Virus genome (UHGV): UHGV-1564381
Source: a virus
DNA: 12,068 bases
Strand: one strand, 5' to 3'
The translations under genes were made by a program, and so were the position numbers. Positions 121 through 6,146 of the stretch are shown here, in pieces. Positions within the stretch are counted from its first letter, which is position 1; the number at the start of each line of letters is the position of its first letter. The notes under the pieces are model-generated. The model saw only the letters and a list, made by a program, of their open reading frames with translations. It was not told where the DNA came from and made no database searches.

Positions 121-153
121 TGTAAAATAATAACCGGACTTAGCCGGTTATTA
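121..153 (-). terminator. Putative rho-independent terminator ending the leftward gene block
   Basis: Perfect 10-bp inverted repeat TAATAACCGG (128-137) / CCGGTTATTA (144-153) with a 6-nt loop, starting 14 nt past the stop of the 167..466 gene. On the minus strand the stem is followed directly by TTTTACA (plus 121-127), extending a U-rich 3' arm. Confidence 0.55.
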
Positions 154-166
154 CCCTTATAGGAAT

Positions 167-466
167 TTACATCTTTTTTGCATAGTTCCTGATTTCTTTT
201 ATTATATATTCCTGAAAACGCTCCGAGTTTTCGCATTTGTCTTTCGAAGGCTCATCAAGTCCCAACTTGCATCCCGCAACGGTCAGTCCATCTTGATATG
301 CAGCGCCTAAAGCCATGCTTAGGTCTAACATGCACAAATCGTAGTCTTCCGCCTTTGAACACAACTCTGTAGAGACACGTTGCACTCGTTCAATGCTATT
401 TTCTTGAGAAAATGCGGAAGAGCTAAAAATGAAAGTTAAGAATGTGAATGCTGCTACAGTTTTCAT
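167..466 (-). CDS. Small exported cysteine-containing protein, function unknown
   Basis: 99-aa ORF with ATG start. N-terminus MKTVAAFTFLTFIFSSSAFSQ looks like a Sec signal peptide (basic residue, hydrophobic core, small residues before the cut). Four Cys in the mature part. AGGA lies about 8 nt upstream of the ATG; 9-nt gap after the upstream gene. Confidence 0.6.
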   Translation of the reverse strand: MKTVAAFTFLTFIFSSSAFSQENSIERVQRVSTELCSKAEDYDLCMLDLSMALGAAYQDGLTVAGCKLGLDEPSKDKCENSERFQEYIIKEIRNYAKKM

Positions 467-475
467 ATCAATATC

Positions 476-997
476 CTAAAACGGTAAAATTCGTTCAACC
501 CAATCGAAGAAAACAAGAATTTTTCTGCCGTCTTTCAACTTAAGTGTGACTAGGCAGGCATCCACGCCATCTGACGTTCCCTCAATTTCGCGGCCGTCTG
601 CCATGTAGACCCTTATAGATTGGCCGTTTTGATAAGCCTTGCGACATATCTTAAAAAAGTCACGACGTGATGGCTGATTAACCATCTGTTCATTGTTTAG
701 CGTTAGTCGACCTGTGAATGAAGTGTCAACCTCTTCTATGCCCGACTCAATTGTGCTAATGCGTTCAAGAGGGAGCCTTATACGATTTGTGTTGCTAAGC
801 GGATCTGGTGTGAGGTTCAGCTTATTTCTTGCGCTCAATAGCCCGTAGACATACATGCAAAACACTTGGCCGTCTTCGAGAGTGACTCTTACAGGAAATT
901 TTGCACTCCGCCAGAAGAGCAAGGCGCGCTCAGCATGTTCGTAGTCTCGCGGCCAGACTTCAGCCGGTATGCCGTAGGTGATGTCCAATGTTCTCAT
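476..997 (-). CDS. Hypothetical protein, 173 aa
   Basis: Long ORF with ATG start whose start overlaps the stop of the upstream gene (ATGA on the minus strand at 994-997), indicating translational coupling. No motif recognised by eye. Confidence 0.55.
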   Translation of the reverse strand: MRTLDITYGIPAEVWPRDYEHAERALLFWRSAKFPVRVTLEDGQVFCMYVYGLLSARNKLNLTPDPLSNTNRIRLPLERISTIESGIEEVDTSFTGRLTLNNEQMVNQPSRRDFFKICRKAYQNGQSIRVYMADGREIEGTSDGVDACLVTLKLKDGRKILVFFDWVERILPF

Positions 998-1593
998 TCT
1001 GATACTCTTAGAGGTGTTTTCAGCAACCCAAATTTAAATTCTTTGTTACCAACGACAAAGAAGGGAACCTCAACATAGATTTTTTTATCGACGGATTTAG
1101 AGTTCGCTGTTTTCTGTATGTCACGAACGATACGTTTTGAGGTATTTTCATCGATAAACAATACCTTTCCACTTGTATTCCCTTCAGCCTTGGCGTAAGT
1201 AACGATAGGCTCTTCATTGCCAACCCTAATGTTTACTTGGCAACCTGTTGTAGCCATTTCATCACAGTAAAGTGTGCCGTCTTGAACTTCTAAAACAATT
1301 CCAGATGGCTTCATGGCTTCGTCAGAGCTTACATTAACGTTTTCTGGTACAGCGGTCCCGTTAATTTGCAACCGTAATCTTTCTTTTCCTCCATTAAGTA
1401 TTGTTTCTTCTGCGTTGTCTGAGAATCTGAACCAAACTGGCTGATTCAGACCTCGTGATTTGTATTCTACTACGTCTTCGGAGGTAAACATGCTGTACGT
1501 TTTTTGCATGTCAGAGACGAAATCTGATAATGCGTTGGCGGAAAACGCCGGGAGGCATATACAAGCAAGGAGTAACGAAAGTTTCATTTTCAT
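994..1593 (-). CDS. Exported protein with signal peptide (possibly lipoprotein), function unknown
   Basis: The ORF track opens at a TTG at 1608; the first in-frame ATG is at 1593 (another at 1587). From 1593 the N-terminus is MKMKLSLLLACICLPAFSANA: basic start, hydrophobic core, ANA cleavage-type site, and an LLAC that could alternatively be a lipobox. Start is 15 nt after the upstream stop. Confidence 0.55.
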   Translation of the reverse strand: MKMKLSLLLACICLPAFSANALSDFVSDMQKTYSMFTSEDVVEYKSRGLNQPVWFRFSDNAEETILNGGKERLRLQINGTAVPENVNVSSDEAMKPSGIVLEVQDGTLYCDEMATTGCQVNIRVGNEEPIVTYAKAEGNTSGKVLFIDENTSKRIVRDIQKTANSKSVDKKIYVEVPFFVVGNKEFKFGLLKTPLRVSE

Positions 1594-1608: not shown

Positions 1609-2097
1609 TTATTTAACATCACACTTTCTAAGTTTTTCTATTTGTTCTAATTTTTCATGATCATCATTTAGATTTCCTTCGACTATCTCCGTTTCAAGTT
1701 TGCTGATTAGCATGTTAAGTGCGTTGTAGTTATTGCATTTTACTTTGTAGGCGTAGTATGACCTTGTCCCTGGTTTTTGTACACCCATATCATTAAAGTT
1801 AGAGCTTAAAGTATAACCTTCAAGTTCAACCCCTTTTATTGTTGGAAGAATTATATTAAATGGTTCTAATTTAAATGGGTAGATATAAATATGTGATATG
1901 AAGTACTCTTCTGAAGAGATTTTCTTCATGTCTTTTGTGATTGAAACTGAATATTTACGGTTCCGAGTGATATAAAATTTTGTACATTTGTACGGCTCTA
2001 AGTTGAATAGATAATATTTGTCTTTAAAAAGAGCATCTTTTCCATGTGATATTTTATGTCGTAAAGAGTTAATTATTTTGTTTATAGAAATACTCAT
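1609..2097 (-). CDS. Hypothetical protein, 162 aa, in AT-rich accessory DNA
   Basis: Uninterrupted ORF with ATG start; K/N/Y/I-rich product. Sampled GC is about 30%, against about 50-58% in the ParB/ABC operon. No recognisable motif. Confidence 0.5.
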   Translation of the reverse strand: MSISINKIINSLRHKISHGKDALFKDKYYLFNLEPYKCTKFYITRNRKYSVSITKDMKKISSEEYFISHIYIYPFKLEPFNIILPTIKGVELEGYTLSSNFNDMGVQKPGTRSYYAYKVKCNNYNALNMLISKLETEIVEGNLNDDHEKLEQIEKLRKCDVK

Positions 2098-2206
2098 CTA
2101 CAGTATCCGACCTTAGTTATCAATTGAAAAGCCTACAAATATCGTTCAGCCAATCAAGAAATTTTTTCAGCCGGAGGTGTGTACTTCAAAAAATGTGATG
2201 AATGTC

Positions 2207-2236
2207 ACATGCAGGTGCTCTCATACACCTGCATGT
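2207..2236. promoter_or_regulatory. Perfect 11-bp inverted repeat between two leftward genes (hairpin or operator)
   Basis: ACATGCAGGTG (2207-2217) and its exact reverse complement CACCTGCATGT (2226-2236) around an 8-nt loop, 6 nt past the stop of the 2243..2809 gene. On the minus strand a T6 run follows only after about 13 nt, so it is not a canonical intrinsic terminator. Confidence 0.3.
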
Positions 2237-2242
2237 AGACTA

Positions 2243-2809
2243 TTAATCATTCAATAATCTATATTTTCTTTTGATTAAATCTTCACCTTTTTTGGTGAAC
2301 ACAAAACCAAATTGCGATTTTTTGTTCAGCCTAAGGACTCTGTTATCCAACGCATCGGTTGATGGAATCAATGTTTGATCATCTATCCAATTAAGTAGCG
2401 TAAGAAAGTTCAGCAGCCTCAACGTTGTTGTGCGAAGCTCTTTCGATATATTTTCAATGCTGGCAATTCGTCTTTCTTTTTTCTCAGGTGGTACAGATAA
2501 TTGTTCTTGAGGTTTCGTGGGTAGATAATCAATTTCGTTTGCTGAATCGAATGATATGTGTGGCGTAATTTTGCTAAAAAAGCCTTTCGCTGACTCACTT
2601 GATAATAAACCAGACCTATTCATATCGTTTGTTATTCTGTACAGGAGTGGACTGTGTTTCATTTCAGGATAACGTTGATAAAAGTTAAGCAATTCAAAAG
2701 CAGCATTAGCACCAACAAGAAAATCAGAAGGATCGCTGACTTTCCAGAAAGAATGATTTTTCTTAGCGCCAGTGGTGTCAACAAATGATAATTCTTTTAA
2801 CCAACTCAT
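2243..2809 (-). CDS. Hypothetical protein, about 188 aa
   Basis: The ORF runs 2243..2842. I place the start at the internal ATG at 2809 (MSWLKEL...) because the minus strand reads GAAAGGAGCACATC-ATG there, a strong AAGGAG Shine-Dalgarno 6 nt upstream. The MMCSL... start at 2842 has none. GC is lower than the helicase and packaging genes. Confidence 0.55.
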   Translation of the reverse strand: MSWLKELSFVDTTGAKKNHSFWKVSDPSDFLVGANAAFELLNFYQRYPEMKHSPLLYRITNDMNRSGLLSSESAKGFFSKITPHISFDSANEIDYLPTKPQEQLSVPPEKKERRIASIENISKELRTTTLRLLNFLTLLNWIDDQTLIPSTDALDNRVLRLNKKSQFGFVFTKKGEDLIKRKYRLLND

Positions 2810-2874: not shown

Positions 2875-3153
2875 TTACGGCAACCTGCTCAGTATTTCCT
2901 CTAGATCTTTTTTTGTCATATTGGAGTTCTCATAGATGCGCATGATTTTCTCACGCGTCTTAGCGGAAACCCCAACGGCAGATGTGACTTTGTCAAATTC
3001 AGCCATAGTCATCGTCTCCAGAATGGCATTGATAACTTCAGCCTTAGACATCTTGATTTTTTTCTCTTTGAGTTTTATTTGAAATTTTCCAAGTTTTTCA
3101 TTGGCCTTATCAGACAATGCCACTTGGCAATAAGTTGTTTTCTTTTCGCTCAT
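2875..3153 (-). CDS. Small putative DNA-binding protein (possibly ribbon-helix-helix-like)
   Basis: 92-aa ORF with ATG start 2 nt after the helicase stop. The N-terminal segment (TYCQVAL, then SDKANEKLGKF..., then MSKAEVINAILET) fits a strand-helix-helix pattern by eye only. Lys/Glu-rich. Confidence 0.4.
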   Translation of the reverse strand: MSEKKTTYCQVALSDKANEKLGKFQIKLKEKKIKMSKAEVINAILETMTMAEFDKVTSAVGVSAKTREKIMRIYENSNMTKKDLEEILSRLP

Positions 3154-3155
3154 AA

Positions 3156-4715
3156 CTAATCTCGTTTCAGAACTCCAAAATCGAATGCGCCATCAATAGG
3201 CAATACACCTTCTGCAAAGCCAGGTGTGGTGTCGATGATGTGTTTTCGCTCATAAGAGTGAGACAACAGGTATTTGTTGCTAATGTCAATGAAATCAGTG
3301 ATAAAACACACGTTTGCCTGATTTTTTTTTGCTCGTAAGCCACGACCGACACGCTGTCTCATTTCAACTTCTGCTTTCCCACCACCAGCAAGAATGACCG
3401 CGCCCACGCTTGGCACATCAACACCGACATCCAGAATAGTCGAGCCTATTAAAACATCTATTTCGCCAGACGCTAAACTGTTCAGCTTTGCTTGCCTTGT
3501 CGCCTGGTTCGATTCCCCATAAATGAAGTCAACTCTAAGGCCGGACTCCTTCATCATCTCCATCAGGATTTGCCCGTGGCGTTTAAGACGAACCAGAGTC
3601 ATACAATTGAGAGAATGTTGCTTATAGAGCAATGCTTCGCGCACAATGGCCTCGTTACGTCCCAAATTATACACGATCCCCAACTGATAAGCCTTTTGGT
3701 AGGCAGTGCTCATACCTACTCTAAAATTAAGGTGTTTGTTGGCAAGTTCCGCCTTGATTCTGACCTCGTCTGGCTTGTAAGCAACTTTATGATAAAGGAA
3801 GTACGGTTTTGCCAGAATGCCTCGATCAATCAGGTACTTTTCTGTGACTTTAATTTCAATTCGCCCGGCCACCGCCATCAGGCGCATGTTGGCTTCCGTC
3901 GAATCCTTCATGAACGGCGTGGCTGTAAGCGCCAGACGATAGTCTGCGTTCACACATAATCTGGCGATGTCATAGAAATTTGAGCCTGAAGACTCATGCG
4001 CCTCTTCCAGAATAAGAAGAGAGACACTTGAAAGGAAGCGTTTCACCAACTCCCGACGTTTGAGGTGGTAGCTTTTCTTATCTGGTGTTGCATCGCGTGG
4101 TGGTTCTTCGAGGAAACTTGCAAGAGTTTGAACTGTAGCGACGTTGATATGTCGTGATACCTGGAACTCACCCGAGCCAATGACTCCAACCTTTTGGTCT
4201 TTTAACCACGGTTCGCCATTTTCGGCGCGGTAGTCGATGGATCTCTGGAAGTTTTCGGCCATTTGAAACATCAGAACAGAGCGGGTTGTTAAAAATAATG
4301 TCATTCGACCGATACGTGCAGCTGCTTTGCAGGCAACGTTAGATTTCCCGCCACCAGTAGCGATCTGCGCAATCATCATTCCCTCTCGAACCAGTGTTTC
4401 CACAGTCTGATCCTGATATGCATAATCAGGATTGTATGGGAATGGGTTAACCGCCGGATTTGGTTTACCAAGCGCCGGGGCTTTGTCTTTGCGGATATGA
4501 ACACATTTGATGCCCGCCTTGTTCAAGTTCGCCGCTACAGGCTTGGCAAAGCCAGCAGGGAACGAGTTTTTACTCCAGTTGAACATCGTGCTTGTGCCCT
4601 TCCAGTCGCCAGTCTCGACTTCGTAGCTCAACATTTGCTGCACCAGTTGCTTTACCTTGTCATCTGCGCCAGAAATAAGCGCATTTACTGCGTTAGATAC
4701 AATCCGAACAGTCAT
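3156..4715 (-). CDS. Superfamily-2 DNA/RNA helicase (DEAD/DEAH-box, type III restriction Res-like ATPase core)
   Basis: 519-aa ORF with ATG start and upstream AAGGAAAGAGG. Motifs read in the translation: Walker A QIATGGGKS, motif II LLILEEAHE, motif III LTATPF, C-terminal helicase domain with motif VI QRVGRGLR. About 120 aa of N-terminal sequence precede the motor core. Confidence 0.85.
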   Translation of the reverse strand: MTVRIVSNAVNALISGADDKVKQLVQQMLSYEVETGDWKGTSTMFNWSKNSFPAGFAKPVAANLNKAGIKCVHIRKDKAPALGKPNPAVNPFPYNPDYAYQDQTVETLVREGMMIAQIATGGGKSNVACKAAARIGRMTLFLTTRSVLMFQMAENFQRSIDYRAENGEPWLKDQKVGVIGSGEFQVSRHINVATVQTLASFLEEPPRDATPDKKSYHLKRRELVKRFLSSVSLLILEEAHESSGSNFYDIARLCVNADYRLALTATPFMKDSTEANMRLMAVAGRIEIKVTEKYLIDRGILAKPYFLYHKVAYKPDEVRIKAELANKHLNFRVGMSTAYQKAYQLGIVYNLGRNEAIVREALLYKQHSLNCMTLVRLKRHGQILMEMMKESGLRVDFIYGESNQATRQAKLNSLASGEIDVLIGSTILDVGVDVPSVGAVILAGGGKAEVEMRQRVGRGLRAKKNQANVCFITDFIDISNKYLLSHSYERKHIIDTTPGFAEGVLPIDGAFDFGVLKRD

Positions 4716-4797: not shown

Positions 4798-5478
4798 ATG
4801 GATGTAAAAATCACGATTTTGCAGGTTGATGTTGCCAACCTTCGCCCGAATACCTGGAACACCAATTCGGTTGGTGCGCAGAATTTTGAAAAACTGAAAG
4901 GTTCTATCGAAAAATTGGGCTTTTTTAAGCCAATTTTGGCTCGTGAACTTGAAGATGGATTTTTTGAAATCCTCGGCGGTGAACATCGCTGGCGTGCTGC
5001 TATTGAGCAAGGAATTTCAACGGTTCCGGTGCTTTCTGTGGGCAAAATTAGCGATGTCGTAGCTAAACAGATGTCACTGGTGGACAACGAGCGATACGGT
5101 GAAGACGACCAAATCGCATTGCAACGCTTCATTGAAGAAATTCAGTCAGAACTTGACTATCAACTGTCTGAAATCGCTCCGTATGACGACGAAATCTCGA
5201 TGGTTTTAGCAAAAGAGGCGGCAATCGACCTTGAAGCACTGGAGGCGTTGTCTCGTGGTAGTGATGAGCCTGTCGATACCGACAAACGAGAGAAAACCGA
5301 ACGTGTGGGTGCGGAACATCAGACCATGCGCTTCAAAGTAACTTTCGATGCGTCAGATCGTGTTGCAGAAACCATAAAAAACATCATCAAAGAGCAGGCT
5401 ATTAACACCGGTAATGAAATGGAGAACGCTGGTGAGGCTCTGGTGTGGCTGGTCGACTACTACAAGGAGCGTATGTAA
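4798..5478 (+). CDS. ParB/Srx-fold (ParB N-terminal domain-like) protein, paralog 1
   Basis: N-terminal ITILQVDVANLRPNTWNTN followed by ILGGEHRWRAAIEQGISTVPV matches the ParB/sulfiredoxin GxxRxxA signature. C-terminal half is strongly acidic. The ORF track opens at GTG 4780; ATG 4798 is chosen by analogy with the paralog's N-terminus. Stop TAA overlaps the next start (TAATG). Confidence 0.75.
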   Translation: MDVKITILQVDVANLRPNTWNTNSVGAQNFEKLKGSIEKLGFFKPILARELEDGFFEILGGEHRWRAAIEQGISTVPVLSVGKISDVVAKQMSLVDNERYGEDDQIALQRFIEEIQSELDYQLSEIAPYDDEISMVLAKEAAIDLEALEALSRGSDEPVDTDKREKTERVGAEHQTMRFKVTFDASDRVAETIKNIIKEQAINTGNEMENAGEALVWLVDYYKERM

Positions 5479-6146
5479 TGACCAAAAAGTTTGAAATCGT
5501 ATATCGCGACCCGGCAGATCTTATTCCCTATGAGATGAATGCCAAAAAGCATGATGAACAGCAGATCAGAGATCTGGCCGCAGCCATTAAAAAGCGCGGA
5601 TTTGACCAGCCAATTACGGTCGATAAGAACGACGTAATTATTACTGGCCACGGCCGCCGTGAGGCTGCAATTTTTGCTGGACTTGAGCGCGTACCGGTTA
5701 TTGTTCGCGATGATCTCAGTGATGACGAGGTTCGTGCGAAGCGCCTTGAAGATAACCGACTTGCCAGCATTGATTACGATGCAATTAAGCTACAGAAAGA
5801 GCTTGAGTCGCTTGTTCTGGACGATATCGAGGTTTTCGGCTTTGAAGAGCGTGAGTTGAATGTTCTCGTTGGCAGTATGACAGAAGAAATGGACACCGAC
5901 TCGCTAGTTATCGATCTTGGCGAAGAAACTAAACGACAGAAGGATGAACACACCGAGATCAGTCGTGAAGTTGCAGCGGAAGAAGTACGTGTTGTCGACG
6001 TATTGGGCTTTAAAACGCTCCCTGCTGGCTCTGCCATTGTTGTTGGTGATTTGCTTGCCCATATGGAAGAAATGACGGGAGAAAGCGGGGTAGACGCATT
6101 TGTGGCATATGCGGAGAAGATCTCTTCCGGGGAGATGGCTGCATGA
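5478..6146 (+). CDS. ParB/Srx-fold (ParB N-terminal domain-like) protein, paralog 2
   Basis: ATG at 5478 preceded by AGGAG (5464-5468); the track's GTG 5445 start is rejected. Motif ITGHGRREAAIFAGLERVPV fits the ParB/Srx signature. Same architecture as the upstream gene: ParB-like N-domain plus acidic C-terminal half. ATGA overlap with the downstream ATPase. Confidence 0.75.
   Translation: MTKKFEIVYRDPADLIPYEMNAKKHDEQQIRDLAAAIKKRGFDQPITVDKNDVIITGHGRREAAIFAGLERVPVIVRDDLSDDEVRAKRLEDNRLASIDYDAIKLQKELESLVLDDIEVFGFEERELNVLVGSMTEEMDTDSLVIDLGEETKRQKDEHTEISREVAAEEVRVVDVLGFKTLPAGSAIVVGDLLAHMEEMTGESGVDAFVAYAEKISSGEMAA

Follow-up and report, generated by a model that had tools for sequence, protein, structure and literature searches.

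A predicted four-gene operon of an SSU5-like phage-plasmid links an FljA-family gene to two genes for probable periplasmic proteins

The genes orf199, fljA-like and orf99 lie next to one another on the minus strand of the virus genome UHGV-1564381, of which a stretch of 12,068 nucleotides (nt), called the window throughout, was analysed. We propose that they form the downstream end of a four-gene operon, accessory and regulatory in nature, on the minus strand of an SSU5-like phage-plasmid that would act by lysogenic conversion, a reading to which we assign a probability of about 0.55. An initial annotation, made from the letters of the sequence, had given the middle gene no interpretation; it had missed that the product belongs, by its profile match, to the FljA family. 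The two genes on either side encode proteins that are very probably exported. The four genes are listed below in transcriptional order; slot A and slot B denote the positions upstream and downstream of the fljA-like gene.

Positions 1609-2097, minus strand: orf162, a cytoplasmic protein; probable first gene of the unit.
Positions 994-1593, minus strand: orf199, 199 amino acids (aa), beginning MKMKLSLLLACICLPAFSANA; predicted exported protein, slot-A cargo.
Positions 476-997, minus strand: fljA-like gene, 173 aa, predicted cytoplasmic FljA-family protein; conserved syntenic core.
Positions 167-466, minus strand: orf99, 99 aa, beginning MKTVAAFTFLTFIFSSSAFSQ; small predicted exported protein, slot-B cargo.

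Bases 1-2250 of the window matched plasmid pEC332_01 (113.8 kb) of Escherichia coli EC332, a chicken meat isolate, at 100% identity. The region also shared 80-98% identity with the phages SSU5, Cyrano, PhiR41_1 and CMS-2020a, and it had matches in 589 database plasmids. Together these matches identify the element as an SSU5-like phage-plasmid, which agrees with the phage origin assumed in the initial annotation; the open reading frames (ORFs) and N-terminal sequences given there were likewise present in the sequence as described. SSU5-like phage-plasmids were found in 234 of 5,426 complete E. coli genomes. The complete combination of the window was seen in pEC332_01 only.

The identity of the middle gene was established by comparison with the Pfam profile Flag1_repress (PF03614), which its product matched with E=6.2e-69 and 231.6 bits (cut-off 24) over profile positions 1-170 of 170. 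This marks it as a full-length FljA-family protein; it falls in PHROG 1444. In BLASTP it was 37% identical (E=4e-38) to an LT2 FljA sequence, a comparison that is indicative only. In size it resembles FljA of Salmonella fljBA and FljA(z66) of plasmid pBSSB1 (~173-179 aa). The presence of FljA on mobile elements is already known, and it was reported that FljA(z66) prevents translation of the fliC mRNA and that a plasmid carrying fljA(z66) makes motile E. coli non-motile (PMC2652032). By virtue of its family membership, the fljA-like protein would be expected to bind fliC mRNA and to block its translation. An internal duplication or tandem Sm-like architecture, considered on account of weak LSM and DUF6982 matches, was dropped; an hhalign comparison of the N-terminal with the C-terminal half aligned 13 columns with a probability of 3.8%.

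By tblastn the fljA-like gene was present in 835 plasmids, among them 345 from Klebsiella, 229 from Escherichia, 92 from Enterobacter, 62 from Yersinia and 60 from Salmonella. It retained its position after the helicase gene and orf92 even at 36% identity, and its omega was 0.09-0.27, comparisons among Klebsiella and Yersinia pestis elements included. This distribution, synteny and constraint indicate that it belongs to the core of the element. Purifying selection over long distances also acts on the other two genes, with omega values of 0.11 for orf199 and 0.19-0.23 for orf99. Some of the related records deserve comment in their own right. The annotation of the fljA-like gene of SSU5 (3043-3570), a 148-aa 'transcriptional repressor', is truncated, and the frame extends upstream to a full-length 175 aa. 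In Y. pestis D182038 the match is in two pieces and unannotated, and may be a pseudogene. A 171-aa protein labelled Gemella morbillorum joins the N-terminal half of an E. coli-type FljA-like protein to unrelated low-complexity sequence and probably reflects contamination or a chimeric assembly.

Like fljA of Salmonella, the fljA-like gene is a distal operon gene that directly follows, and is coupled to, one whose product is exported. Unlike Salmonella fljBA, the locus has no invertible promoter and no linked flagellin gene, and the gene upstream encodes a predicted Sec-exported periplasmic protein in place of the flagellin FljB. It also differs from canonical FljA in being a core gene of a phage-plasmid family that occurs in non-flagellated hosts as well.

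The arrangement of the genes and of the signals around them was examined for evidence of a common transcript. The signals are as follows.

Positions 123-153, minus strand: intrinsic-terminator-like hairpin with stem UAAUAACCGG/CCGGUUAUUA, loop CUAAGU, then UUUUA; ends the unit.
Positions 474-478, minus strand: stop/Shine-Dalgarno junction, found likewise at loci of Klebsiella (L007), Cronobacter (L015) and E. coli (L021).
Positions 2129-2170, minus strand: promoter-like block with TTGATT (2152-2157), a 16-nt spacer and TAGGCT (2130-2135); probable promoter of the unit.
Positions 2187-2250, minus strand: strong extended hairpin with core arms at 2225-2236 and 2207-2218, then U6; between orf199b and orf162.

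The stop codon of orf199 and the start codon of the fljA-like gene overlap in ATGA at 994-997 of the minus strand, and the overlap is kept, as TAATG, in a homologous orf199/fljA-like pair at 54% identity (locus L016). The fljA-like stop codon TAG (478-476) overlaps the Shine-Dalgarno sequence AGGA (477-474) of orf99, 9 nt before its ATG. Upstream, 15 nt lie between the stop codon of orf162 and the start of orf199. Because orf162 ends so close to orf199, and because the promoter-like block and the strong hairpin both lie upstream of orf162, the unit most likely comprises the four genes orf162-orf199-fljA-like-orf99, bounded by two terminators. The initial annotation had described a single transcription unit of three genes; the ATGA overlap, the tight coupling and the conserved terminator speak for a single unit, and its extent most likely has to be enlarged to four genes by the inclusion of orf162.

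The hairpin at 123-153 had a minimum free energy (MFE) of -15.7 kcal/mol (z = -2.1). It was nearly invariant in relatives from E. coli, Klebsiella, Cronobacter, Yersinia and Salmonella, and in all relatives it stood directly 3' of the last gene of the unit, with or without orf99. A simple terminator scan did not report it, its A/U-rich stem, 4 central G-C pairs and UUUUA tail missing the stricter rule of that scan. A stable stem-loop, a U-tract, the position at a gene end and conservation make it a plausible Rho-independent terminator. Downstream of the unit there are two copies of the motif (C/A)TATAAGG(G/T)T(A/G)A on the minus strand, at 66-78 and 150-162. One of them overlaps the foot of the terminator stem, and both are conserved in relatives.

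The non-coding block at 2129-2170 was ~90% identical to L016, while the flanking coding DNA was saturated at synonymous sites; in a consensus promoter scan it stayed below the threshold. In other lineages, in which the unit begins with the fljA-like gene, that gene has a promoter-like -10 element of its own, and the leaders upstream of it differ between lineages. The second hairpin is very stable: the MFE was -47.7 kcal/mol for positions 2098-2250 (z = -4.96), none of 200 shuffles folded equally well, and L016 carries one compensatory change from A-U to U-A in it. It is probably the terminator of the upstream helicase-orf92-orf199b unit, or it may be a palindromic operator. Its core arms, ACATGCAGGTGT / GCACCTGCATGT, form a perfect 12-bp match. 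Rfam and tRNA scans of the window were empty, and a repeat search gave nothing relevant.

Export of orf99 and orf199 was judged by explicit rules on the 16 proteins of the window, 14 of which served as negative controls, and on 7 related controls, together with alignments of homologues. Among the window proteins, orf99 and orf199 alone combined a lysine-containing n-region, a 19-residue uncharged stretch and a -3/-1 site. Their maximal Kyte-Doolittle values over 10 residues were 2.3 and 2.9, respectively, and those of all others were at most 1.7. Cleavage is predicted after residue 20 of orf99 (AFS|QEN) and after residue 21 of orf199 (ANA|LSD). In the homologues this layout was retained while the signal sequences themselves varied. 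Both proteins are thus very probably exported, as the initial annotation had supposed, and their N-termini look like signal peptides for Sec and signal peptidase I.

The mature parts fit such a destination. The four cysteines that had been noted in orf99 are present as two close pairs, C36, C45, C66 and C78, all conserved down to 57% identity, and suggest local disulfides C36-C45 and C66-C78. The mature part (79 aa) is all-helical, with 4 helices in an AlphaFold2 (AF2) model at a predicted local distance difference test (pLDDT) score of ~75, and this model gave no specific fold match. The orf199 protein is beta-rich and has a conserved cysteine pair, C110/C118, in its mature part, which fits its probable location in the periplasm. 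Searches of Pfam, PHROGs, NCBIfam and PADLOC with both proteins returned nothing informative beyond PHROG families of unknown function (PHROG 27673 for orf99) and a weak match to the Vs family considered below, and PDB sequence searches were empty. For orf199, a search of 5.8 billion proteins gave 14 clusters and a profile search of 1.84 billion representatives gave 9, all enterobacterial; a 1035-aa protein with Ig-like repeats was matched as well, which was put down to an artefact of low complexity or beta strands.

The genes around the fljA-like gene are far more variable than the gene itself, which keeps a fixed position between the helicase/orf92 genes and the conserved terminator. Comparison of the lineages reveals each side of it as a recombination hot spot that holds different, predicted envelope-targeted genes by lineage. 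In slot B, zero, one or two small secreted proteins with four cysteines were found, which are of two types, orf99 being one; at all loci examined they start 3-9 nt after the fljA-like gene. The orf99 type was present in 151 plasmids, mostly from Klebsiella, and the type-2 small protein in 246. The orf99 gene corresponds to a clean indel of 309 nt (bases 168-476) that Cyrano, PhiR41_1 and p09EL50 lack. At the position of orf99, pEC7518-111k has an unannotated ORF of 98 aa with a signal peptide and four cysteines that is 28% identical to orf99. Against one Klebsiella plasmid the synonymous divergence (dS) was 0.068 for orf99 compared with 1.73 for its fljA-like neighbour, a discordance which indicates that orf99 was recently exchanged between lineages. 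In the E. coli plasmid NZ_CP062854.1 (L021; 2129-2800) a type-2 ORF (unannotated, 98 aa) and orf99 follow the fljA-like gene in tandem, and orf99 is preceded by 75 nt that duplicate the fljA 3' end (...EDGRKILVFFDWVDRILPF*). This duplication shows that the orf99 cassette moves together with a copy of the fljA 3' end, by recombination at that site. The arrangement in the window can have arisen by deletion between two such copies.

In some E. coli lineages slot A is occupied by orf199, which overlaps the start of the fljA-like gene; orf199 was found in 65 plasmids, mostly from E. coli. Elsewhere other secreted proteins occupy the slot, among them the following.

pMT1 and pTLYA-2, with a homologous gene in SSU5: a DUF2846-like lipoprotein, 4-nt gap to the fljA-like gene.
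Cyrano and PhiR41_1, with a related 259-aa lipoprotein in Cronobacter: a divergently oriented 266-aa lipoprotein.
Klebsiella: an inverted 144-aa lipoprotein.

The first of these, SSU5_122 or the 140-aa protein of pMT1, corresponds to orf199 in position, orientation, export and location upstream of the fljA-like gene, and differs from it in being a true lipoprotein of unrelated sequence. By their distribution, orf99 and orf199 are dispensable, lineage-variable accessory cargo. As such they are not virion or replication components, an outcome that the initial annotation had named as contrary to its proposal.

Morons and other lysogenic-conversion cassettes, T4 Spackle, T5 Llp and the Cor proteins of phi80 and N15 are, as orf99 and orf199 appear to be, dispensable, lineage-variable and envelope-targeted, and lie in terminator-bounded hot spots of a temperate element. 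Presence/absence polymorphism of the kind that marks morons was found for both genes (the clean orf99 indel, 151 and 65 plasmids vs 835 for the fljA-like gene, and the discordant dS). Unlike classical morons, neither gene carries its own promoter, and both are coupled in translation to a neighbouring regulator gene. T4 Spackle resembles orf99 in size, signal peptide and a helical, disulfide-bonded mature part; no similarity between the two was detected by sequence or fold.

From these features the following mechanism can be proposed. In the plasmid (lysogenic) state the unit would be transcribed from the promoter-like block at 2129-2170. The FljA-like protein would repress translation of the host flagellin mRNA in motile hosts, and would act on another RNA in hosts without flagella. 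The orf199 and orf99 proteins would be exported by Sec, cleaved by signal peptidase I and oxidised to disulfide-bonded proteins, and would act in the periplasm as lysogenic-conversion factors, their most likely role being to shield the envelope from superinfecting phages or from other attacks on it. Lysogenic conversion, through RNA silencing by the FljA-like protein and envelope change or protection by the periplasmic cargo, is judged from the sequence evidence to be the most likely function of the locus; superinfection exclusion by orf99 and orf199, suggested by analogy, is a reasonable guess. For the present the locus counts as an ordinary accessory cassette of hypothetical proteins; it does not amount to a new kind of system. 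Its mild puzzle is an FljA homologue in hosts that have no flagella.

Several observations weigh against this proposal. Klebsiella and Y. pestis have no flagella, and the fljA-like gene is equally conserved in the plasmids of Klebsiella (345) and of Y. pestis (within the 62 Yersinia plasmids). Because it is conserved in such hosts, flagellin cannot be the only target of its product and may not be a target at all. Neither a flagellin gene nor an invertase was found, whether in the window or at the related loci that were examined. The promoter consists of a conserved block only, has a weak -10 element (TAGGCT) and was missed by the consensus scan, and the tight coupling of the genes could stem from genome compaction instead of a shared function. 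The AF2 models of orf99 and orf199 are of low to moderate confidence with non-specific fold matches, and structure and homology searches assigned no function to either protein. In the literature, no paper was found that links SSU5-type elements to FljA, motility, orf99 or orf199.

The host range leads to a tentative alternative, namely that the FljA-like protein is the element's own post-transcriptional regulator with a non-flagellin RNA target, either an RNA of the element or another host mRNA, and that the exported proteins are unrelated cargo that hitch-hikes on its transcript. Its synteny and purifying selection in plasmids of the two non-flagellated hosts, the lack of a linked flagellin gene and the free exchange of cargo on both sides would all be expected in that case. 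However, the protein matches the FljA family strongly and over its full length, FljA-family proteins of mobile elements silence E. coli motility (PMC2652032), and many of the hosts are flagellated (E. coli, Salmonella, Enterobacter, Citrobacter and Cronobacter). Moreover, no candidate RNA target was found, and between lineages the leaders ahead of the gene are not conserved. A more far-reaching proposal, which we regard as rather unlikely, is that SSU5-type elements (among them pMT1 of Y. pestis, pHCM2 of Salmonella Typhi and the common ones of Klebsiella) recruited an RNA-binding repressor of the FljA family as a core regulator with a target that is not flagellin, or not flagellin only. The repressor would be deliberately co-translated with exchangeable periplasmic cargo, in the manner of fljB-fljA, such that a component of the host envelope is silenced and the cargo replaces or antagonises it.

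The initial annotation had suggested that orf99 and orf199 are outer-membrane lipoproteins of the Cor/Llp type or other receptor-masking exclusion proteins, or that they serve in lysis control. The signal peptides on both proteins would suit such a function, as would their dispensable and lineage-variable nature, which is usual for exclusion genes, and the true lipoproteins that slot A often holds in relatives. A possible LLAC lipobox had been noted in orf199. PROSITE PS51257, which requires 6 or more uncharged h-region residues ahead of [LVI][ASTVI][GAS]C, failed for orf199 with either start codon because of lysines within 6 residues of the box. The pattern passed for SSU5_122, Cyrano_115 and the 144-aa Klebsiella protein, which are the true lipoproteins at the position of orf199 in relatives. 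Furthermore, the lipobox cysteine is absent from the orf199 homologues P0010, P0013, P0023, P0028 and L016, in which the ANA|(L/V)SD site is conserved. Because the pattern fails and because the cysteine is missing in homologues that retain the cleavage site, orf199 is, as far as its sequence tells, a signal-peptidase-I substrate and not a lipoprotein. The Cor/Llp analogy thereby loses its defining feature, and neither protein has sequence similarity to Cor or Llp; more widely, no similarity by sequence or fold was found to known superinfection-exclusion, lysis or defence proteins, Spackle among them. Lysis control was rejected, as the vicinity is free of lysis genes and both orf99 and orf199 are dispensable. 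We consider the suggestion as a whole unlikely.

It is highly improbable that orf99 is a functional orthologue of T4 Vs, which is annotated as a protein that binds and modifies the cytoplasmic valyl-tRNA synthetase of the host, with an N-terminus that is not a cleaved signal peptide: both are phage proteins of ~100 aa, orf99 matched phrog_1256 (valyl tRNA synthetase modifier) with E=2.5e-5 and PF26829 (ValRS_modifier) in a precomputed match marked 'weak', and T4 Vs shares the hydrophobic N-terminus, two close cysteine pairs and an AYxDG motif, but without the signal peptide the match dropped to E=0.017, the hhalign probability was 7%, there was no BLAST-level similarity in 50,697 phage records, and the canonical n-h-c signal with its -3/-1 site and the four conserved cysteines of orf99 point to an oxidising compartment. 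The profile matches are weak, and orf99 may belong to the Vs family; the reported function of T4 Vs is cytoplasmic whereas orf99 looks exported. T4 Vs itself (T4 5387-5734) starts like a signal peptide (MTKILVLCIGLISFSASASA) and has four cysteines in two close pairs, which is odd for a cytoplasmic protein.

The neighbourhood of the predicted operon completes the picture. In the direction of transcription the minus strand carries the helicase gene, orf92, orf199b, the strong hairpin, orf162, orf199, the fljA-like gene, orf99 and the terminal hairpin. The locus adjoins the helicase/ParB region, and the opposite strand encodes, further along, ParB proteins, an ABC-type ATPase, terminase and portal. 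The two mapped upstream genes are the following.

Positions 4715-3156, minus strand: helicase gene, upstream of the locus; orf92 is next.
Positions 2842-2243, minus strand: orf199b; RefSeq start at 2809.

The PHROG 25050 profile covers residues 1-162 of the 162 of orf162, and a truncated remnant of this gene is present in the L016 lineage. In PGAP/RefSeq orf162 extends over 1609-1929 only (106 aa), although the profile spans all 162 aa. For orf199, alternative starts are at 1587 (PGAP) and at a TTG at 1608. The RefSeq start codons of orf162, orf199 and orf199b all depart from the longest conserved ORFs.

SSU5-like elements are common, and the plague plasmid pMT1 as well as carriers of resistance genes belong to them. 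If it is true that the FljA homologue silences flagellin, carriage of such an element would stop motility and would remove a major antigen and phage receptor from its host. If its target is other than flagellin, the RNA-regulatory role of the FljA family would be broader than known. In either case the two slots that flank the fljA-like gene would be natural test beds for finding phage proteins that act on the envelope.

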